Below, in pieces: positions 1,247 through 12,510 of a stretch of DNA of 35,002 bases. The notes below the pieces were generated by a model that was not told the DNA's origin, did not search any database, and saw only the letters and a list, made by a program, of their open reading frames with translations. This DNA comes from a virus. The stretch lies in UHGV virus genome UHGV-0140552; one strand, 5' to 3'. A program made the position numbers and the translations under genes. How positions within the stretch are numbered: the stretch's first letter is position 1; each line of letters opens with the position of its first letter.

Positions 1247-1400
1247 GGTCTTTCCTCAGCATGCCGGCTATCGCGTTGTCTGCCGTATCGCAAGCGCGTT
1301 GGATATCGGACTGGGTCAGAGTCCTCTTTCTAACGCTGGCTGATAGCCTGCCAATTTTGATATCGAAATCTGAAAGTAAAAGTGTGCCTGGTTGCCAACG

Positions 1401-1440
1401 TAGCATTGTGATCTCCGGTTCATAGGTAGATCACAATGCT
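1401..1440. repeat. Perfect 14-bp inverted repeat TAGCATTGTGATCT / AGATCACAATGCTA with 12-bp spacer
   Basis: Read directly from sequence. Lies between the 61-aa gene and the xis-like gene, with no T-run on either side. Confidence 0.8.
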
Positions 1441-1455
1441 AACGACAGTTGCGAG

Positions 1456-1641
1456 TTATTTCTGATTAGGCTTAATCAGGTTTGGTTTATTCCGGAACGC
1501 GCCATTTTCGCGGGTGATTTTGGCACTGCGCGGAAAATGCATAGCCAGTTCACAACGCGCGCAGGCTTCGATTATCCCGTTAGTACCGTCCGGAAAAACG
1601 ACGTGAAGCGCGTCGCCTCGTTTCAGTGTGAGTTTCAGCAT
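1456..1641 (-). CDS. Hypothetical small protein (61 aa), start at ATG 1641
   Basis: ORF in the leftward early operon. Its ATG at 1639-1641 abuts the stop codon (1643-1645) of the upstream gene. No recognisable motif. Confidence 0.5.
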   Translation of the reverse strand: MLKLTLKRGDALHVVFPDGTNGIIEACARCELAMHFPRSAKITRENGAFRNKPNLIKPNQK

Positions 1642-1642
1642 A

Positions 1643-2209
1643 TCAGCGCACCTGCAGCGAACGTTCGCCAATCTCAAGGTGAGCGCCCGGCACTGGGTTT
1701 AACAGTTCTTCCGGTATCTCTCCGCCGTCAGCGGTAATCTGGGCCGCCGCTGCCTGTGCTGATTCAATCGCTTCCTTGATGGCTTTCTTGTCCGGAGTGA
1801 CTAACGTCTGAACTGTCACTAATTCATCCGGCAGTAATTCATCATTATCGATCACGACGTTTATAGCTCCCTTACGTGCGGTAAAGGTATTTTTGGCGGT
1901 TTTAACCGTATCCTGACCGGCGGCCAGTAGACACTGGAGAACATATTTCTTCAGGTTCGTGATCTTACCTTCGAATGATTTTTTGCGGGCGGCAAGGCGT
2001 TTGGCCTCTTCATCGCAGGTTTTTGCCAGGCCTTCCAGATTGCGAACGTGGACGAAAACGGCATCCAGTTTATCGCCGAGTTGTAACTCAAGACCTTCCA
2101 TTGTGTCGGCGATCATTTCAGGAGACAGACCAGCACCGTCTTCGTTTTCCAGTAGTGCCTGGAGTTTTGACATATCGGCTGCGATAGCAATTGCAGTGGT
2201 GGAAGTCAT
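1643..2209 (-). CDS. Gp157-like phage protein (188 aa), recombination-module associated
   Basis: Coiled-coil-rich acidic protein with an EEAKRLAARKK...NLKKYV segment resembling the Siphovirus Gp157 family as I recall it. Translationally coupled (TAATG overlap) to the upstream annealing-protein gene. Confidence 0.55.
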   Translation of the reverse strand: MTSTTAIAIAADMSKLQALLENEDGAGLSPEMIADTMEGLELQLGDKLDAVFVHVRNLEGLAKTCDEEAKRLAARKKSFEGKITNLKKYVLQCLLAAGQDTVKTAKNTFTARKGAINVVIDNDELLPDELVTVQTLVTPDKKAIKEAIESAQAAAAQITADGGEIPEELLNPVPGAHLEIGERSLQVR

Positions 2210-4401
2210 TATGCTTTCTCCTCGGCTTTATTCAGTTCTTTAATGCGCCCATCTTTGATGGAGATGAGTCGGCGGAGCCGGCCAGACAGATAACGTTCAT
2301 GCTGCGTGTCGCCGTTGGCCTGGGCGGCTTTAATGTGAACATCGATCTCACGTGCGATAGGGGAAAACACACCGTTGATTTCGTTCACCGTCACGCCATG
2401 CGCCAGGGTATTAGCAACGCGGCTTAATTTATCGTCAAACTCCTGGCGGAGCCGTGCTGCATCTTCGGCTGATTCGCTGGCGTTCTTCAGGTCAAACTCG
2501 GCCTTGTTCTTCTGGCGGTACTCCAGATTGTCGTAAAGCCCCATAAAGATATCGCCACTGAATCCGAGGCCGGATAACGCTTTTTTGGTCGCATCTGTCA
2601 GTGATTTTTTGGCTGCTTCGCCGTCGCAGGTGATCCCGTATTTACTACCGTAAATGTAGGGTGTACAGCCGTATGCTGTTTCCTCACCTCGTACTCCGTT
2701 CAGGATGTACCAGAGCCGGACAGTCACAACATGGTGCTGTTCGTTGACGGTATTACCATTCCCATCAAGAACCAGCTCCCACGATGCGTTGTTGTCTTTG
2801 CCTTTTACTTGCCGAGTGATCGGCGCGCCAATATCGAAACGCTCTTCAACAATATCCACGCCCCAGCCGATGCCCTTAGGGCCAAACTCACGTGTGGCAA
2901 GCATGGTCATGTAGGTACCGTTGATCGAGGTGCCACCGCCGTTCTGTGTGAAAGCCTTAGTAAACCTTTCGTCGGTTTTAAATACGCGTTTCCAGAGGTC
3001 TAAATTGTCTTCCCCGATGATTGGTTTTCCGACAGCCTGCACAACATCCTCAGCGTTAGGCAGGCTTTCAGCGTGAGCGATTTGTTTTGCTAAACGCTCG
3101 GAATCATCAGCCAGTTTTTCAGCCTTAACGCTTAACTTCTCTTCCGGCTCTGCACCTTCACCAGAGGCATATACGCCATAACCCATATCATTGAGCGTCT
3201 CACGCGCCTGTTTGGCCTGGGTGTCGGTTACAACCGGCTGCTGCGCTTCCACTTTTTCGCCCACGTTTGAGGCGGTATTTTGCGTCGCCTCTGGTTGTTT
3301 AACGGATCCTGTCTCGGTTTCCTCAAAGCGGCCGTTGGCCGCCAGCCATGAATCGATATGGCGGCGCAGGCTGTCAGGGAAATGGTAGGTATCTTTCGCC
3401 GGTACGTTTTGTACCACGCCGAAGATGCTGGCGCGGTCGTATTTGAGTATCTGCGGCGTGGTGTGCAGCGATGCTGACCAGCGTTTAAAATCTTCCCGGT
3501 CATCGGAAATCATCTTCTTAGCGTCCAGAAGGTTTCCGGATAGTACCGGCGCATCAGGCGCCAGCGGGAGAAGGGCGGTAGCGATCTCCTGATCCAGCGT
3601 TGCATAAGTGTGTTTATATCCGCGCTTAGAAATTACCACGGGTGTTTTATCATCGGTGCTGGTGCTGGTGCTGGTGCTGGTGCTGGTGCTGGTGCTGGTG
3701 CTGGTGCTGAGAGCGGTATTTTTATATACGCCGGGGGCCAGTTCGTCGCGCTTGCCCGGATTCTCAAGCCAGCGTTTAACGAACTGAGAGATAGCCGCTT
3801 TGCCCGGCGTCTGGTTTTCAAAGTGGGAGAAAATACCCTGAATAAGATTGTTCAGACCTTCCACATGCATGCTTTGAACCGGGAAGTTATTTTGCAGGGC
3901 ACACAGAACATTAAAGTTAAAGCGATCTTCCTCTTCAAATTCCCCATCGTGGTTTTTCAGATTATCCAGATAATCCACAACCTGAGAATAAAGATGGCCA
4001 TCAATCGCCGCGGTACTAAAAAGCAGGACGGCAGCAAAGCGTTCATCAGGGGAAACGGTCATCAGGTCGATCACTTCATCGTCGGCAGGTAAACCTGCAC
4101 CACTTCCGGAAGCGCTATCCTGCGCAGTAGAAACCCATTTTTCACCGTCAAAAGTATGCTGCTGGGCGAATGACTCATCGAACTGGCCAACGGTCGGCAG
4201 CGGCTGGCCTTCAACGTGTTCCCACAGTTTCGGTTTGAAATAGTTGTCACCATTGGCCGGGTATGATTCCCAGAGTTTGCCGGTCATAATGCTTTCGGCC
4301 ACTTTTTTGTTTGGCGCATCGATGGCGATCGCCAGCTGCACGGCGCCGCAGTCTTTAATCGCCGATTTCTTTGGCTCAAATGAGCCGTTGTAGATGGTCA
4401 T
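2209..4401 (-). CDS. Large multidomain protein (730 aa) with C-terminal Rad52/Sak-type single-strand annealing domain and an internal (Ser-Thr)9 linker
   Basis: Segment GCTPYIYGSKYGITCDGEAAKKSLTDATKKALSGLGFSGDIFMGLYDN matches the Rad52-family signature (K-x-A/S-V/L-TD-x-x-K-K/R-AL-x-x-F/L-G). Start placed at ATG 4399-4401, which has the GAGGAAAGACCA RBS motif; the ORF-track start at 4434 is a GTG without a Shine-Dalgarno. Confidence 0.75.
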   Translation of the reverse strand: MTIYNGSFEPKKSAIKDCGAVQLAIAIDAPNKKVAESIMTGKLWESYPANGDNYFKPKLWEHVEGQPLPTVGQFDESFAQQHTFDGEKWVSTAQDSASGSGAGLPADDEVIDLMTVSPDERFAAVLLFSTAAIDGHLYSQVVDYLDNLKNHDGEFEEEDRFNFNVLCALQNNFPVQSMHVEGLNNLIQGIFSHFENQTPGKAAISQFVKRWLENPGKRDELAPGVYKNTALSTSTSTSTSTSTSTSTSTDDKTPVVISKRGYKHTYATLDQEIATALLPLAPDAPVLSGNLLDAKKMISDDREDFKRWSASLHTTPQILKYDRASIFGVVQNVPAKDTYHFPDSLRRHIDSWLAANGRFEETETGSVKQPEATQNTASNVGEKVEAQQPVVTDTQAKQARETLNDMGYGVYASGEGAEPEEKLSVKAEKLADDSERLAKQIAHAESLPNAEDVVQAVGKPIIGEDNLDLWKRVFKTDERFTKAFTQNGGGTSINGTYMTMLATREFGPKGIGWGVDIVEERFDIGAPITRQVKGKDNNASWELVLDGNGNTVNEQHHVVTVRLWYILNGVRGEETAYGCTPYIYGSKYGITCDGEAAKKSLTDATKKALSGLGFSGDIFMGLYDNLEYRQKNKAEFDLKNASESAEDAARLRQEFDDKLSRVANTLAHGVTVNEINGVFSPIAREIDVHIKAAQANGDTQHERYLSGRLRRLISIKDGRIKELNKAEEKA
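3655..3708. repeat. Perfect hexanucleotide tandem repeat (GGTGCT)x9, in-frame within the 730-aa gene, encoding (ST)9
   Basis: Read directly: nine contiguous GGTGCT units on the plus strand; on the minus coding strand AGCACC gives S-T repeats. Confidence 0.95.
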
Positions 4402-4445
4402 TGGTCTTTCCTCTTGGTTACTGGCGCAGGTCACGCGCCGGTTAA

Positions 4446-4769
4446 TTAAAACGGTACGTCGCTTTCTTCAATTGGAGAGTGATCGATGCACAGCAGCTGC
4501 TGAATCTGGTCTTCAATAACACCCAGCTCCTTCTTTGCTTCGGCAGAGATTTTCTCTTTCTTCGCACGAAGGGCATTAACCTGCATACCAATAATGTCGA
4601 TTGGCTCTAAAGCTGGAATGGCAACCTCTACCGTTTTGGTAGTAACGAGGACATACAGATCAGGGTATTGCTGTGACATGTCACAGGTGAATGAGTGATA
4701 AGACGTTGGTAGATATGGGTTGGTTGTGGCCATAACGTAAATAGTTACGGGGATGGTAAGCGCTTCCAT
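4446..4769 (-). CDS. Hypothetical protein (107 aa), first gene of the leftward early operon; C-terminus ...PIEESDVPF
   Basis: ORF with a strong AAGGAG Shine-Dalgarno 5 nt upstream of the ATG at 4769. No recognisable domain. Confidence 0.7.
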   Translation of the reverse strand: MEALTIPVTIYVMATTNPYLPTSYHSFTCDMSQQYPDLYVLVTTKTVEVAIPALEPIDIIGMQVNALRAKKEKISAEAKKELGVIEDQIQQLLCIDHSPIEESDVPF

Positions 4770-4887
4770 AGCGACTCCTTGATGATATATACTCAGAGCC
4801 GATCAGCGGCTCTGTCGTTGGTCTTTCCTCGCTACAGGGTTGGTCCCCTGTAGCATTCTGGGCGGTTTGGTCACTGTCCCGGGTAAA

Positions 4888-4962
4888 TTAGCCCACTTCG
4901 GTGGGCTTTTTTACGCCTGAAGGTTGCCGGTCTTTCCCGGCTGTCAGGGTGGTCAGCCCCAT
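4888..4962 (-). CDS. Possible leader-peptide ORF (24 aa, MGLTTLTAGKDRQPSGVKKPTEVG) ending inside the terminator hairpin
   Basis: ATG at 4960-4962 is preceded by a perfect copy of the GAGGAAAGACCA initiation motif. The stop codon (4888-4890) sits at the base of the 4890-4907 hairpin. Very short and unverified. Confidence 0.25.
   Translation of the reverse strand: MGLTTLTAGKDRQPSGVKKPTEVG
4890..4912 (+). terminator. Intrinsic-terminator-like hairpin AGCCCAC-TTCG-GTGGGCT followed by TTTTT (plus-strand sense); A-tract on the other side, so possibly bidirectional
   Basis: 7-bp GC-rich stem, TTCG tetraloop, T-run 4908-4912. Located in the ~490-bp noncoding leader between the repressor gene and the early-left genes. 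Confidence 0.55.
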
Positions 4963-5169
4963 TGGTCTTTCCTCGTTACTGCGTGAATGCTTTAAAAAAA
5001 TGCCCGGGGCGCCCGGGCCAAGACTACACACAGCAATTCGCATTCGTTGCGGTCTTTCCCGCATGTCATCGTACTGTCGGCGACCCGAAGAATTCGCGCC
5101 CGTCTTTCCGGACTGTCAGAACTGTTTCTGAACAACTGCCGCGTGGTTAGTGCGTCGTTGATGTGATGT

Positions 5170-5198
5170 AATTTAGATAAATCTAACAATTTGGTCAA
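5170..5198 (-). promoter_or_regulatory. Putative early-left promoter (PL-like): -35 TTGACC, 17-bp spacer, -10 TAAATT, overlapped by an operator
   Basis: Reverse complement of 5170-5198 reads TTGACC-17 nt-TAAATT. The operator palindrome at 5173-5186 overlaps the spacer and -10. Confidence 0.4.
5173..5186. promoter_or_regulatory. Operator-like 14-bp palindrome TTAGATAAATCTAA (OL-like)
   Basis: One of three sites fitting TTAGA-N4-TCTAA. A swapped-arm relative, TCTAACTGATTAGA, lies at 5244-5257. Confidence 0.6.
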
Positions 5199-5263
5199 TG
5201 ATTAAATTAGAGAAAACGAACACAATGGGCGTAAAAAAATGCATCTAACTGATTAGAAAGGGA

Positions 5264-5650
5264 TTATTTTTGTTTGCGGGCTTGCAGTAACTCCTCAAAT
5301 AAACGATTGAAACCGTCTACTTTTTCGCGAAGTTCCGTTAAATGCCGCTCTTTTTCAGATTCTGGGAGTGACGAAAAGAGTTTTAAAAGCTCTGTTTCTC
5401 GTTCATCTAATGGCGGCGGGGTGTCTACCGGGGTTCCCGGAGTGGCGGCTTCATCGCCGTAAAGTATCCAGGTAGGGCTGCATTGAAGTGCGTTACTTAA
5501 AGCGAAAAGGTTTTTTCCGCCAGGCTCACTATCACCGGTCTCCCACTGGGAGATAGTGACGTGCGCGACGTTAACCAGCTTCGCTAAAGCGCGCTGAGTA
5601 AGTTTGAGATCTTTTCTACGCGCTCTGATGCGCTCACCTGGCATTGTCAT
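5264..5650 (-). CDS. Phage repressor, HTH XRE-family (128 aa), RacR/CI-like, no S24 peptidase domain
   Basis: N-terminal HTH (LTQRALAKLVNVAHVTISQWETG). Divergent from a cro-like gene, with palindromic operators in the 80-bp intergenic region. Too short to carry a LexA-like autocleavage domain. Confidence 0.85.
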   Translation of the reverse strand: MTMPGERIRARRKDLKLTQRALAKLVNVAHVTISQWETGDSEPGGKNLFALSNALQCSPTWILYGDEAATPGTPVDTPPPLDERETELLKLFSSLPESEKERHLTELREKVDGFNRLFEELLQARKQK

Positions 5651-5652
5651 AG

Positions 5653-5666
5653 TTAGATAATTCTAA
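5653..5666. promoter_or_regulatory. Operator-like 14-bp palindrome TTAGATAATTCTAA (OR-like, proximal to the repressor gene)
   Basis: Palindrome read from sequence. On the minus strand it contains TAGAAT about 10 nt upstream of the repressor ATG, suggesting a leaderless PRM-like transcript. Confidence 0.6.
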
Positions 5667-5672
5667 ATTTCC

Positions 5673-5701
5673 TTGACTTCGTTATCTCGAACACCTAATT
5701 T
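5673..5701 (+). promoter_or_regulatory. Putative early-right promoter (PR-like): -35 TTGACT, 17-bp spacer, -10 TAATTT
   Basis: Sequence match. The -10 is weak, so this is a tentative call. Confidence 0.35.
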
Positions 5702-5702
5702 G

Positions 5703-5716
5703 TTAGAAAAATCTAA
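5703..5716. promoter_or_regulatory. Operator-like 14-bp palindrome TTAGAAAAATCTAA (OR-like, proximal to the cro-like gene)
   Basis: Palindrome lies between the putative PR -10 and the CAGGAGGG Shine-Dalgarno of the cro-like gene. Confidence 0.6.
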
Positions 5717-5730
5717 CAGGAGGGTGTTTC

Positions 5731-5925
5731 ATGTTAACAACTGATGCGATCAAATATTTTGGTAGTAAGAGAAAACTGGCTGAGGCCGCTGGCGTTAAGG
5801 CTCCTACTGTCTATGCGTGGGGGCGTTTGGTTCCTGAAGGTAAAGCGGCTCGTTTGTCTCTGATGACTGATGGCGAACTTGTTTATGACCCAAAGGCTTA
5901 CCAACTGCCAGCCAAATCAGCTTAA
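5731..5925 (+). CDS. Cro-like / YdaS-family small HTH regulator (64 aa)
   Basis: Small ORF divergent from the repressor, with a strong Shine-Dalgarno (CAGGAGGG). HTH-like segment KRKLAEAAGVKAPTVYAWG. Same arrangement as racR-ydaS in the E. coli Rac prophage. Confidence 0.75.
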   Translation: MLTTDAIKYFGSKRKLAEAAGVKAPTVYAWGRLVPEGKAARLSLMTDGELVYDPKAYQLPAKSA

Positions 5926-5987
5926 CAATTAGCGGCATCGAAATCTGATTACGCTTAATCAATTTTCAGCGACAGGAGACGCTCGAA

Positions 5988-6434
5988 GTGGAATACCTCG
6001 AAGAACTTAAACGAGAGATCTTTAACTGGGCAGCGGAAAGCGGGCAGGAGCTGGTTGCTATCGAGATAAGCCGCATGTGGTTTCGTCTTGGTGGTAATAC
6101 CGGTTCGCTGAAGCTGCACCAGATCGAAGATGCAGATGGAAACGCCGACTGGCGGGCAATCAACAACAACCGCCAACAAATTTTTCGTTGGTTGCGAGGC
6201 GAGACCAAAGCCGCGAGAGCCAAAACTCTGGCGCTGGTCAAAGCGATGGAAGCGGCGCTGCCGGCAGAACGTTACGCGCGCTTGGGTATGTCCACTCAGT
6301 ATTTAATTTGTGTGGCCATTCGCGAGTTTGCCGCGGCGATTATCGCGTTGTTACTCGACGCCAGAGACGGGCCGCAGCAAGTCGCCAGAGCATTGCAAGC
6401 TATGCGAGAAACACAGCGCCTGACCAGCGTTTAA
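5988..6434 (+). CDS. YdaT-like / CII-like regulatory protein (148 aa), GTG start
   Basis: Follows the cro-like gene. AGGAG Shine-Dalgarno 9 nt upstream of GTG 5988. The QQIFRWLRGETK segment is reminiscent of the YdaT family (recalled from memory, unverified). Confidence 0.55.
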   Translation: MEYLEELKREIFNWAAESGQELVAIEISRMWFRLGGNTGSLKLHQIEDADGNADWRAINNNRQQIFRWLRGETKAARAKTLALVKAMEAALPAERYARLGMSTQYLICVAIREFAAAIIALLLDARDGPQQVARALQAMRETQRLTSV

Positions 6435-6454
6435 CCTGTACCGAGGAAAGACCA

Positions 6455-6676
6455 ATGAGAACACAAGACCGCATCACCTGGCGGAACGGGTTTCGCCGGA
6501 ACGGGGTACAAGTCCCGATAGAAGATATCGAATTGATTTTCGAGGAACGTCGCGCTGCTGCGCTGACAATCTGGGAACGCTACGAGCTGCGCAAAGCAGA
6601 CCTGCAGGAAGCGGGACTCACCCAGAAAGAATATGAAATCGCCTGCCGCCAGCTGGCTGACTCGCTGGGGATCTGA
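6455..6676 (+). CDS. Hypothetical small protein (73 aa)
   Basis: ATG 6455 is preceded by the conserved GAGGAAAGACCA motif. The longer ORF-track call (6188-6676) overlaps the YdaT-like gene and lacks an RBS. Confidence 0.6.
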   Translation: MRTQDRITWRNGFRRNGVQVPIEDIELIFEERRAAALTIWERYELRKADLQEAGLTQKEYEIACRQLADSLGI

Positions 6677-6678
6677 GT

Positions 6679-7671
6679 ATGAATATTTTGCCATTACTCG
6701 ACAGGCCGATCGCCTTCCAGCGTAGTTTCATTCGCCTGAATATCGGTGTGACGGCTGCACTGTTCCTGTCTCAAATGACTTACTGGACTAACCGATCCGA
6801 CGATGATGGATGGGTATATAAAACCCAGGAAGAATGGGAGGAAGAAACAGGCCTTTCCCGTTACGAACAGGAGGGGGCGCGTAAGAAACTTCGCTCAATT
6901 GGTGTACTGCTGGAAAAAAAGAAAGGTGTACCTGCTCGTCTTTTCTACAAGATTGATAATGATGTTTTATTTCAATCACTTGTAGCCGCAAACAAGAATG
7001 CGGAAAAACCACATACTGGAATGCGGAAAACCAGCAAACAAGTAAGTGGAAAACCAGCAAACTTTCTTACAGAGAATACTACAGAGAATATATATACCCC
7101 TAACCCCTTAGAGGGGGAAGGCGTTGAGTTAATTCTTTCTGATGCACAAAAAGCGCTGGAATTTTACAACGAGCAAACCGGTACCCGCTGCCGTGACCTG
7201 AAACCGTTTGTGATGATGCTGACGCCGACCACCACCCGGGAAGGTTACACCCTGGACGAATTGCAGTTAGTTATCCGCTGGGTGCTGGCCACATGGCGCC
7301 GCCGTGGCGATAGCCTGCCGAAGCCAGCGAACATCTGCCGGGTAAACCGCTTTGATGGTTATCTCGCTGACGCTGAAGCATGGGCGGTGACCGAAGCCGA
7401 TATTGACCCCGAAGCCGTTATGAACGGCTACAACGAAATTTTTGCTGACGCTCTGCCTGCTGCTGAACTCGACACCGACCGCCGCCGGATGATCACCCGT
7501 CTGGCCGCCCATATGAAAAACAAAACCACGGGCGCATTTCTGGGCTATTTCGAAAAATTCCGCGCTGACGCCTCCGATTTTTACTTTGGTGAAAATGGCG
7601 GATGGCGCGCCAGCTTTGACTACCTGATGAAGCCTGAAACATTGCGTAAAACTCGTGAGGGATCGCTATGA
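6679..7671 (+). CDS. Phage replication initiation protein (O-like / replisome organiser, 330 aa)
   Basis: Sits immediately upstream of, and translationally coupled to, the DnaB-type helicase gene. N-terminal DNA-binding-like region and a C-terminal region typical of phage replication proteins. Confidence 0.7.
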   Translation: MNILPLLDRPIAFQRSFIRLNIGVTAALFLSQMTYWTNRSDDDGWVYKTQEEWEEETGLSRYEQEGARKKLRSIGVLLEKKKGVPARLFYKIDNDVLFQSLVAANKNAEKPHTGMRKTSKQVSGKPANFLTENTTENIYTPNPLEGEGVELILSDAQKALEFYNEQTGTRCRDLKPFVMMLTPTTTREGYTLDELQLVIRWVLATWRRRGDSLPKPANICRVNRFDGYLADAEAWAVTEADIDPEAVMNGYNEIFADALPAAELDTDRRRMITRLAAHMKNKTTGAFLGYFEKFRADASDFYFGENGGWRASFDYLMKPETLRKTREGSL

Positions 7672-9056
7672 CTCCGCAGGAACTGGAATCTTGTGTACTG
7701 GCTGGACTGCTTAACGGTGGAGCAAGTCCGGACGCTTTCGACGTGATCGCATCGACGCCTGAAGAATCATTCAGCATTGTTTTTCATCGTCGCGCCTTCT
7801 CGGAAATCAAAAAACAGGCGTTGACGAACGGTCTGATCGATATGCTGTTTGTCAGTGAGGCTCTGGGAGGGAGTAGCCTGGCTGATTTATCAGAGATTTC
7901 GCGTATGCCCGCAACGGTACCAAACCTGAAAGGTTACGCCGGGAAAATGGTGAAGGCGTGGCGCAGCCGCCGTATGGCTGAATTACTGCAACATGGTGCT
8001 GATGGTATCCGCCAGGCGAATAATCAGGAGCAGCGCGATCAGATTGTCGAAACTGCCGTGGCGCAGCTGCTGGACATGACCGGCGACACTGGCGACGTGC
8101 AGCCGGTACACATGAGCGAATTATTGCCGGTGTACATGGAAACCATGCAGAAGCGCATGGACGGCGAAGAGGGTACTCGCAACCTGAAAACCGGGATCGA
8201 GGAACTGGACGATGCGACCGGCGGAATCAACCTGCAGGATTTGATTGTCGTCGCCGGGCGTCCGGGCATGGGAAAAACAGAATTTGCGCTGAAGATTGTC
8301 GATGGTGTTACCGCTGCTGGCGGTGGCGCGTTGATATTCAGCATGGAAATGGCCGCTGCGCAAATCGTAGAACGCTCTCTGGCGGGTTCTGGCAACATGT
8401 CAGTGTCACGCCTGCGTAATCCCCTCGATATGCAGGACGAGGACTGGGCGCGCTTTACCGCGGCCATGGAGACCATGAACGGGCGAGATATCTGGATCGT
8501 TGATGCTACCGATCTGACGATTGAGCAAATCCGCGCCGTTGCCGAAACGCATAAGCGCCGGTATCCGCATCTGGCGATGATCGTTGTCGATTACCTTGGC
8601 CTGATAAAAAAACCGAAGGCAGAGCGTAACGACCTCGCGATCGCCCACATATCCCGAAACCTAAAAACTATGGCTATGCGCCTGCATACGCCGACGTTCG
8701 CGCTTAGCCAGCTTTCCCGCGCCGTGGATTCCCGCCCGGCGGCCCAGCGCCGCCCGGTCATGTCAGACCTGCGCGATTCCGGTTCCATTGAGCAGGACGC
8801 CGACAGCATCATGTTTCTGTACCGCGATGAGGTTTACAACCCGGAAAGCCCGGCGGCTGGCGTCGCTGAAATTATCCTGGGTAAAAGCCGCTTCAGCGCC
8901 GCAGGCGCAATTATTTATCAGGAATTTAAAAACGGACACTTTCTGTCAATGGATCAGCATGTTGGCAAAGAGAAAACACGTATCCAACTGGAGGCCGCGA
9001 AACCCCGGAAACAACCCCGTAAATACTCAGAGAAATTCAATACCGATGCATTTTAA
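7668..9056 (+). CDS. Replicative DNA helicase, DnaB family (462 aa)
   Basis: Walker A GRPGMGKTEF, Walker B-like IVVDYLGLI, and overall DnaB C-terminal RecA-fold layout. Confidence 0.9.
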   Translation: MTPQELESCVLAGLLNGGASPDAFDVIASTPEESFSIVFHRRAFSEIKKQALTNGLIDMLFVSEALGGSSLADLSEISRMPATVPNLKGYAGKMVKAWRSRRMAELLQHGADGIRQANNQEQRDQIVETAVAQLLDMTGDTGDVQPVHMSELLPVYMETMQKRMDGEEGTRNLKTGIEELDDATGGINLQDLIVVAGRPGMGKTEFALKIVDGVTAAGGGALIFSMEMAAAQIVERSLAGSGNMSVSRLRNPLDMQDEDWARFTAAMETMNGRDIWIVDATDLTIEQIRAVAETHKRRYPHLAMIVVDYLGLIKKPKAERNDLAIAHISRNLKTMAMRLHTPTFALSQLSRAVDSRPAAQRRPVMSDLRDSGSIEQDADSIMFLYRDEVYNPESPAAGVAEIILGKSRFSAAGAIIYQEFKNGHFLSMDQHVGKEKTRIQLEAAKPRKQPRKYSEKFNTDAF

Positions 9057-9094
9057 CCGCGCCTGACCAGCGCGATTTAACTGAGGAAAGACCA

Positions 9095-12278: not shown

Positions 12279-12298
12279 TACTGTAATTTTATACAGTA
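12279..12298. promoter_or_regulatory. LexA (SOS) box TACTGT-AATTTTAT-ACAGTA
   Basis: Perfect CTGT-N8-ACAG with the flanking TA/TA of the E. coli-type consensus TACTGTATATATATACAGTA. Overlaps a candidate promoter (-35 TTGGTA 12266-12271, -10 TATACA 12290-12295) and lies 20 nt upstream of a GTG start. Confidence 0.7.
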
Positions 12299-12318: not shown

Positions 12319-12510
12319 GTGGTTGATAAGAAAGACGCAGGAGACCTTCTCCCCGACGATGGTGATGTACTGATAACGTGTGAAAATGGGAAGATTAAGA
12401 AGACCAGAATTGTCCATTCCGATGAGCACGTAGCGACACTTAACGCGTTGTTTGAATTAGCTAAATTGACGGGTTATACCATTATCAAACCAGACGGCAA
12501 TATGCTATAA
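12319..12510 (+). CDS. Small protein (63 aa, GTG start) under the LexA box; candidate SOS-controlled antirepressor or induction factor
   Basis: GGGAGAGG Shine-Dalgarno 5-6 nt upstream of GTG 12319. The longer ORF-track call would place the LexA box inside the coding region. Confidence 0.5.
   Translation: MVDKKDAGDLLPDDGDVLITCENGKIKKTRIVHSDEHVATLNALFELAKLTGYTIIKPDGNML

Follow-up and report, generated by a model that had tools for sequence, protein, structure and literature searches.

A probable DicA/DicC-type immunity switch with a likely leaderless repressor mRNA in a temperate phage genome

Repressor, Cro-like protein and operator palindromes

Positions 5170 to 5730 of a 35,002-nucleotide stretch of virus genome UHGV-0140552 (hereafter the window) hold a putative immunity switch, in which a repressor gene and a cro-like gene diverge from an intergenic region with palindromic operators. 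The repressor gene (5264..5650, minus strand) encodes a 128-residue protein of the DicA family, which matches Pfam HTH_3 with E = 1.6e-16 and is 63% identical to DicA of Escherichia coli K-12 Qin over 123 of its 128 residues. A Pfam scan of the protein found neither an S24 peptidase nor any other domain outside the helix-turn-helix (HTH) class. In an AlphaFold2 model (predicted local distance difference test score 82), built from an alignment without the Qin sequence, a P22-C2-like five-helix HTH domain (approximately residues 4-64) is joined by a linker to a C-terminal helical hairpin (residues 83-127). The N-terminal domain matches the P22 C2 entries 1adr, 2r1j, and 3jxb in phmmer searches (E = 9e-22), and the model overlays the P22 c2-operator complexes with a Foldseek template modelling score of 0.97 (target-normalised) and a root-mean-square deviation of 0.5 Å; records from P22-type phages align with residues 5-70 only. 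The cro-like gene (5731..5925, plus strand) has a GGAGG Shine-Dalgarno sequence and encodes a 64-residue protein of the DicC/P22_Cro (YdaS) family (Pfam P22_Cro, E = 1.1e-14) that is 60% identical to DicC. For comparison, an alignment of DicA relatives was scanned against one genome per species, which gave 57 loci, with 33 distinct loci anchored on the repressor ATG; individual loci are given L numbers where they need to be told apart.

Direct reading of the sequence finds three palindromes of the form TTAGA-N4-TCTAA at exactly the coordinates given in the initial annotation. The first, OL1 (TTAGATAAATCTAA, 5173-5186), occupies the spacer and the first -10 bases of a PL-like promoter, and in its 18-bp form spans 5171-5188 (minus-strand reading TGTTAGATTTATCTAAAT). 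OR2, the repressor-side operator (TTAGATAATTCTAA, 5653-5666; minus-strand reading TTAGAATTATCTAA), covers the -10 element and predicted start of the putative repressor promoter and stops 2 nt short of the repressor ATG. OR1, the cro-side operator (TTAGAAAAATCTAA, 5703-5716; 18-bp form TGTTAGAAAAATCTAACA, 5701-5718), extends from just past the -10 element of a PR-like promoter across its predicted start. It had been proposed that both intergenic sites overlap PR, which holds for OR1 and not for OR2, since the latter sits 7 bp upstream of the PR -35 element. The centres of OR1 and OR2 are 50 bp apart, and no lambda-like middle operator was found between them at up to one mismatch, nor any third TTAG-N6-CTAA site. 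OL1, OR1, and OR2 are all perfect 5+5 palindromes with identical arms, and TTAGA-N4-TCTAA with at most one mismatch occurs exactly three times in the 35,002 bases, always inside the same 544 bp, compared with a mean of 0.52 in shuffled sequence. An AT-rich region and a short motif are what would be expected if the palindromes were chance intergenic repeats with no regulatory role. However, none of 100 shuffles reached three matches, the site positions are base-exact in more than 20 diverged loci, and the homologous site in Qin was validated experimentally (PMC3441716), leaving chance a practically negligible explanation.

Because the N-terminal domain of the repressor is close to that of P22 C2, the operators are best described as 18-bp P22-type palindromes. 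Judged from the sequences, the conserved core is TTAG-N6-CTAA within this 18-bp P22-like operator, with the half-site TGTTAG(A). The longer motif TTAGA-N4-TCTAA of the initial annotation thus describes the operators of the window but not those of the family, and close relatives carry TTAGT...TCTAA in place of TTAGA...TCTAA. A degenerate fourth operator, OL2 (5207-5220; plus strand TTAGAGAAAACGAA, minus strand TTCGTTTTCTCTAA), had been overlooked. Its sequence on the repressor strand is TTCG-N6-CTAA, and TGTTCG-N6-CTAA is found in all 12 close relatives despite variable surrounding DNA. OL2 lies upstream of the PL -35 element with its centre 34 bp from that of OL1, and most other loci of the family have a full TTAG-N6-CTAA site 34-36 bp from OL1, downstream of the repressor gene. 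OL1 itself is kept in the 12 close relatives, also with variable flanking DNA, and begins 6 nt past the PL -35 element, the same distance as for the TTAGTCATGGCTAA site in Qin dicBp.

The arrangement of sites matches that of Qin base for base. The Qin dicC-dicA region reads TTGTTAGTCATAACTAACAA (known as Oc), followed by TTGACT on the dicC strand and then TTAGCATTAGCTAACT-ATG, while the window in the same orientation reads TGTTAGATTTTTCTAACA, TTGACT, and TTAGAATTATCTAACT-ATG. In both, the OR centres are 50 bp apart, the repressor-side site (TTAGCATTAGCTAA in Qin) ends 2 nt before the ATG and holds the -10 element, and the other operator lies across the start of the cro or dicC promoter. The promoters share this geometry as well, with TTGACT-N17-TATCTT for Qin dicCp and TTGACT-N17-TAATTT for PR. 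DicA binds Oc in vivo, and mutation of one arm abolishes binding (Yun et al., PMC3441716). From Oc, DicA represses dicC, for which the dicCp start was mapped by 5' rapid amplification of cDNA ends, and stimulates dicA, for which no consensus promoter is recognisable (PMC3441716). The site positions and the 63% and 60% identities to DicA and DicC support the proposal that this region is an immunity switch. We put the probability at about 0.85 that it is the lysis-lysogeny switch of a temperate Klebsiella-type Enterobacterales phage, built like Qin DicA/DicC, with a leaderless repressor mRNA and Rem-type induction. The inner operator bases, which are A/T-only in the window, differ from the TCATAA, CATTAG, and TCATGG of Qin, and the two elements therefore probably differ in immunity specificity.

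The nearest deposited phage, vB_SmeS_BUCT708, is an isolated temperate phage of 44 kb with 91% DNA identity and 97% repressor identity to the window. The other relatives of the switch are prophages of Klebsiella, Raoultella, Citrobacter, Serratia, and other Enterobacterales. Records OM816834 and OM816835 (vB_SmeS_BUCT708 and BUCT709) are labelled as Stenotrophomonas phages, a host label that is doubtful because every other relative of the switch comes from Enterobacterales. Near-identical switch DNA was not found in E. coli genomes, which gave short matches to the PL leader only.

Just past the repressor stop codon lies a palindrome with the operator arms swapped (TCTAACTGATTAGA, 5244-5257), present as the initial annotation had described it. 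The swapped-arm pattern with at most one mismatch has three matches in the window, compared with 0.59 expected and with 2 of 100 shuffles reaching three, but one of the three is exact and one overlaps an operator. The palindrome is absent in relatives with 89-97% identical repressors, among which only L070 retains 13 of the 14 bases, and as RNA it would fold with -1.5 kcal/mol (z = +0.5). With neither conservation nor an appreciable hairpin, it was rejected as an operator and as a terminator, and its sequence suggests that it is probably idiosyncratic and without function.

Promoters, the repressor transcript and induction

A promoter scan identified a PL-like promoter on the minus strand (5170..5198), with the -35 element TTGACC at 5198..5193, a spacer of 17 bp, the -10 element TAAATT at 5175..5170, and a predicted start near 5163, so that OL1 does overlap a PL as had been proposed. 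This promoter (TTGACC-aaattg-TTAGATTTATC-TAAATT, with operator TTAGATTTATCTAA) has the geometry of Qin dicBp (TTGACC-gatatg-TTAGTCATGGC-TAATCT, with operator TTAGTCATGGCTAA and the same N17 spacer). The PR-like promoter of the cro-like operon was read directly on the plus strand (5673..5701), with TTGACT at 5673-5678, a 17-bp spacer, TAATTT at 5696-5701, and a predicted start near 5708, inside OR1. The generic scan missed PR because its -10 element matches the consensus at only three of six positions.

On the minus strand, the hexamer TAGAAT (5665..5660) lies within OR2 and is followed by 9 nt (TATCTAACT) and the repressor ATG (5650..5648). The best -35 element at 17 bp is GAGATA, a 3/6 match. 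These features bear out the description of a good -10 element about 10 nt upstream of the ATG with a poor -35. No Shine-Dalgarno-like motif occurs within 20 nt of the ATG. The repressor transcript is predicted to start near 5653, 3 nt before the AUG, which would make the mRNA in effect leaderless. In Qin, Romero et al. (PMC4681348, Table S3, Fig. S1) placed the start of the dicA mRNA 3 nt ahead of the ATG, confirmed it by RNA ligase-mediated reverse transcription PCR, and counted dicA, racR, and ymfK among five leaderless E. coli mRNAs. Reg-Seq (PMC7567609) gave no usable data for the dicA promoter, as its mutagenised window held no active start. The string TAGAAT-TATCTA-A-CT-ATG in the window is equivalent to TAGCAT-TAGCTA-A-CT-ATG in Qin, and by this analogy a leaderless repressor mRNA is likely in the phage studied here.

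The family supports this arrangement. All but two of the 33 loci have a -10-like hexamer 5-9 nt from the repressor ATG; it is TAGAAT, TAGCAT, or TAGTAT starting at -14/-15 in approximately 25 of them and TATATT, TATAGT, or TACAGT at -12/-13 in a divergent subgroup. In 31 of the 33, the 20 nt before the ATG contain no Shine-Dalgarno-like motif which, along with the dicA start at -3, supports the leaderless transcript that had been called probable. TTGACT stands at a constant distance from the repressor ATG in most loci, and the first base of the cro-side operator falls at -64 to -66.

Since the repressor has no S24 domain, induction would not proceed by RecA-mediated cleavage. A LexA-box search found a near-consensus box (TACTGTAATTTTATACAGTA, 12279-12298, plus strand) ahead of a 63-residue open reading frame (ORF) on the same strand (12319-12510), which is a candidate Rem-family antirepressor matching phrog_340 with E = 4.7e-23. 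Rem of Qin matches phrog_340 too (E = 4.4e-21), and no Pfam family was found for either protein. Both the LexA box and the 63-residue ORF are kept in phage BUCT708 (L060, 41449-41682). In Qin, DicA represses dicBp, has no RecA cleavage site, and is antagonised by the small antirepressor Rem (Ragunathan and Vanderpool, PMC10448788). As read from the sequence, an induction route from SOS through LexA to a Rem-family antirepressor is likely.

Several observations weigh against a DicA-type switch with four operators and a leaderless repressor mRNA, and are set out here with the explanations that they would favour. A second promoter-like site lies on the minus strand (TTAACA at 5737..5732, a 16-bp spacer, and TG-TAGATT at 5715..5710), scores 9/12 with an extended -10 TG, and would yield a repressor leader of about 53 nt. 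The repressor could therefore be expressed mainly from a leadered transcript, either from this promoter with its -10 element in OR1 (start near 5703) or from a CII/YdaT-dependent promoter further right, with TAGAAT serving only as an operator half-site. The lack of a recognisable -35 element for TAGAAT is consistent with this explanation, and the YdaT-type site at 5945-5962 makes a leftward establishment promoter plausible by analogy with CP-933P (PMC9986795). However, it is hard to reconcile with the 31 of 33 loci that lack a Shine-Dalgarno motif, and the homologous dicA mRNA starts at -3 (PMC4681348). Further, the family retains a TAnnnT hexamer 5-9 nt from the ATG even where the right arm of OR2 has been lost or the operators are quite different, while in Qin the hexamer at the position of the OR1 promoter is TAGTCA, without the final T. 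Repressor bound at OR1 would also silence any promoter inside that site, which therefore could not sustain lysogeny. We consider a mainly leadered transcript quite improbable, with the OR1 promoter at most auxiliary, although it could act in establishment beside the leaderless one.

The other points against this switch concern OR2, the relatedness of the loci, and the antirepressor. Yun et al. (PMC3441716, data not shown) reported that in Qin DicA failed to bind in vivo at 'Om' and 'Oa', the other sites proposed between the genes, and to judge by the names 'Oa' is presumably the equivalent of OR2. Four loci (L006, L011, L012, and L037) retain TAGAAT but have lost the right arm of OR2, making the -10 element the most constrained part of the site, and the inner bases of OR2 follow the -10 pattern (AATT, CATT, or TATT) in all loci. 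Conservation of OR2 may thus, at the level of sequence comparison, partly reflect the promoter rather than an operator. These observations would fit an OR2 that is not a repressor operator, its palindrome arising from the -10 element and the start context (CTAACT-ATG), or that is bound by Cro only, with the repressor using OR1, OL1, and OL2. On the other hand, the arms of OR2 in the window are those of OR1 and OL1 and form a perfect 5+5 palindrome, and approximately 20 loci hold both the TTAG and CTAA arms at exactly -16. We find it somewhat unlikely that the repressor does not use OR2, and because Cro and repressor share operators in P22 and lambda, OR2 would count among the operators of the switch even if only Cro bound it. 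OR1 and OL1 are more alike in their inner 6 bp within a locus than between loci (2.1 versus 3.34 mismatches, 0/10,000 permutations), as expected if each phage's repressor reads both sites, but the loci are related, so the permutation figure overstates their independence and is indicative only. Finally, the direct pairwise match of the 63-residue ORF to Rem is weak (E = 0.019), and their link rests on the phrog_340 profile.

The PL leader and neighbouring genes

Downstream of PL, a scan of 4300-6000 against Rfam returned nothing at the gathering score. About 70 nt from the predicted PL start, an RprA-like module (4992-5093, minus strand) scores 41.6 bits (E = 7.5e-4), below the Rfam threshold of 70. 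Its 20-nt single-stranded core (GAAUUGCUGUGUGUAGUCUU) agrees with the Rfam RprA consensus at every base and precedes a GC hairpin and a U7 terminator (5018..5002). The module also occurs in five close relatives at 44-50 bits (L001 3827-3946, L065 2077-2164, L067 2076-2163, L068 2056-2161, and L070 2485-2600). In the PL leader (approximately 5095-5165, minus strand), the first ~40 nt of the transcript (ACATCACATCAACGACGCACTAACCACGCGGCAGTTGTTCA) are invariant in the 12 close relatives, although the promoter and upstream DNA vary. The leader carries hairpins with GAAAGA loops, and related PL leaders occur across the DicA family (L001, L003, L009, L017-L021, and L062-L070) in two classes. In class 1, a hairpin is followed by GTTCAGAAAC and then by GTTCTGACAG with a GAAAGA-loop hairpin, while class 2, to which Qin belongs, reads GTTCCGC..GGCGnTAAGGG. 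The 176-nt PL RNA is predicted to fold at -62.6 kcal/mol (z = -2.2), its 5' leader pairing with the RprA-like core. Considered as a lambda/P22 nut site, the leader showed no match to boxA or boxB by eye, and no N-like gene follows PL. The anti-small RNAs of Tree et al. 2014 (PMC4104026), considered as a source of the RprA-like element, lie downstream of PR' and not PL, and so do not account for it.

We tentatively suggest that the repressor, acting at OL1 and PL, could control, besides the early-left genes, a terminated RNA of ~170 nt that reproduces the host sRNA RprA in its 3' half and serves as an RprA mimic or sponge, and, as a second possibility, that 'self-activation' by the repressor could reflect relief of occlusion and not contact with polymerase; on present evidence we hold these ideas to be doubtful. 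If true, the immunity repressor would gate an RprA-like RNA and tie prophage induction to the host RpoS/Rcs small RNA (sRNA) network.

An sRNA candidate resembling isrB, which we take to be a Gifsy-prophage-associated sRNA family of Salmonella, lies at 4827-4911 on the plus strand. It converges with the PL transcript and has a terminator of its own at 4890-4907. Against a threshold of 35 bits, the candidate in the window reaches 28.7 and falls short, whereas that in the Serratia rubidaea locus L009 (3181-3303) passes with 36.3; L017 has a copy at 3192-3277. The octamer GGAAAGAC occurs 10 times in the window, with 0.88 copies expected and none of 100 shuffles reaching this count. Eight copies are on the minus strand (5109, 5059, 4972, 4937, 4828, 4411, 1255, and 33720) and two on the plus strand (6445 and 9085). 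Nine of the 10 lie in the early region (1248-9092), each on the strand of the adjacent early ORF. Five of these belong to a common ribosome-binding cassette, (G)AGGAAAGACC(A)ATG, before different early genes, and the copies at 6445 and 9085 also share an upstream GCGCCTGACCAGCG..TTTAAC. The PL leader accounts for three of the other four early-region copies, all in hairpin loops, and the last, at 4828, follows a hairpin. The octamer could be recognised by an RNA-binding regulator or could mark module boundaries.

To the right of the cro-like gene, the ydaT-like gene (5988..6434, plus strand) encodes a CII-equivalent regulator of 148 residues, which matches Pfam YdaT_toxin (E = 3e-21) and the CII-like activator family PHROG 163 (E = 4e-39). 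It is followed by genes for a replication initiator and then a DnaB-type helicase. Between the cro-like and ydaT-like genes is a YdaT-type inverted repeat (CTGATTACGCTTAATCAA, 5945..5962) that agrees with 11 of the 12 specified bases of TTGATT-N6-AATCAA, the YdaT operator footprinted in CP-933P (PMC9986795). A (C/T)TGATT-N6-AATCA(G/A) repeat is found at the equivalent position in 17 of 27 family loci. The genes to the left encode a 107-residue protein (4446-4769, minus strand), a 741-residue YdfE_N/exonuclease-type protein (2209-4434, minus strand), and a Gam-like protein. In the gene for the 741-residue protein, a dinucleotide-like repeat at 3690-3740 specifies a run of eight Ser-Thr pairs (STSTSTSTSTSTSTST), a tract that could be slippage-prone. 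Within the gene for the 107-residue protein lies a perfect 16-bp palindrome, CTGTGACATGTCACAG (4671-4686), which fits CTGT-N8-ACAG, although its GC-rich centre sets it apart from typical LexA boxes.

Proposed operation and comparison with known systems

In the mechanism that we propose, a repressor dimer would bind the 18-bp operators through their TTAG-N6-CTAA core. At OR1 it would cover the start of PR and turn off the cro-like, ydaT-like, and replication genes, and at OL1, in the PL spacer, it would turn off the leftward operon, probably aided by the weak OL2 34 bp away. The repressor promoter, with a good -10 element in OR2 and no real -35 element, would give an mRNA that is translated without a Shine-Dalgarno sequence. 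PR and the repressor promoter stand back to back, their predicted starts about 55 bp apart and pointing away from each other, with the repressor -35 region within the PR spacer. From these coordinates the polymerase-binding regions would overlap, and two polymerases would be unlikely to bind together, so that occupancy of OR1 would favour transcription of the repressor. The 'activation' from OR1, which was shown in Qin, could come about by direct contact or by relief of occlusion; the OR1 centre is at about -56.5 from the repressor start. Binding of the Cro-like protein, or of excess repressor, to OR2 would block transcription of the repressor. For this phage, we infer binding at each site, the transcription starts, and the OR2 ligand.

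The analysis provides a usable map of the switch, with four operators, three promoters, a YdaT site, and a candidate antirepressor. Relative to the literature on Qin, three modest additions result: the four-site layout is conserved across approximately 30 loci, with spacings of 50 bp at OR and 34-36 bp at OL; a leaderless design persists even where operator sequences have changed; and the repressor-side operator keeps its position, although DicA was reported not to bind it in Qin. These additions leave the broader view of lambdoid immunity regions as it was, and both the operators and the leaderless mRNA are ordinary for the DicA family.

Beyond the shared operator layout, Qin and the window both have a short repressor with no cleavage site, a small protein that matches phrog_340, and a YdfE_N protein in the left operon. 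They differ in that the phage in the window looks intact, while Qin is defective. The candidate antirepressor of the window has a clear LexA box, and its cro-like gene is followed by a ydaT-like gene, which Qin lacks at that position. In addition, PL of the window would drive the RprA-like RNA, whereas the PL-type promoter of Qin drives ydfABC-dicF-dicB.

The cI-Cro(YdaS)-CII(YdaT) module of CP-933P and Rac resembles the window in having a Cro of the YdaS/P22_Cro type, followed by a YdaT-family protein, with a repeat of the TTGATT-N6-AATCAA type between them (PMC9986795). In contrast, the repressor is DicA-type in the window and RacR-type in CP-933P and Rac, and no toxin-antitoxin operon was noticed downstream in the window, although no search was aimed at one. 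The Salmonella Gifsy repressors GfoR and GftR are short, non-cleavable, and inactivated by small LexA-controlled antirepressors, as is proposed for the window with its LexA-boxed ORF, and DicA is reported to be similar to the Gifsy repressors (PMC10448788, citing Lemire et al. 2011). The weak isrB-like match beside the switch is a further point of likeness.

Lambda and the window both have divergent repressor and cro promoters with common operators and a leaderless repressor mRNA, which in the window is predicted. The likeness to lambda PRM in the initial annotation stands for the leaderless mRNA and the weak -35 element, but is an analogy only, as the window has two operators 50 bp apart instead of three adjacent ones. 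Lambda OR2 is centred at about -42 relative to PRM, while the putative activating site in the window is near -56.5. Stimulation of the repressor promoter from the cro-side operator has been shown for Qin DicA (PMC3441716). The window shares no homology with lambda beyond the HTH class and has neither a tripartite operator array of the kind that allows pairwise cooperative binding nor an S24/LexA-like C-terminal domain for autocleavage and oligomerisation.

P22 is closer, with the N-terminal DNA-binding domain of C2 about 61% identical to that of the window repressor and superposing on it at 0.5 Å. Both systems have 18-bp palindromic operators in the same register and a Cro of the Pfam family P22_Cro. 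The P22 operator reads ATTTAAG.. and that of the window TGTTAGA.., so that the half-site in the window is TTAG(A) instead of TTAAG. The window also differs from P22 in having two separated OR sites in place of three adjacent ones, and a repressor with no S24/LexA-like C-terminal domain and hence no RecA-mediated cleavage.

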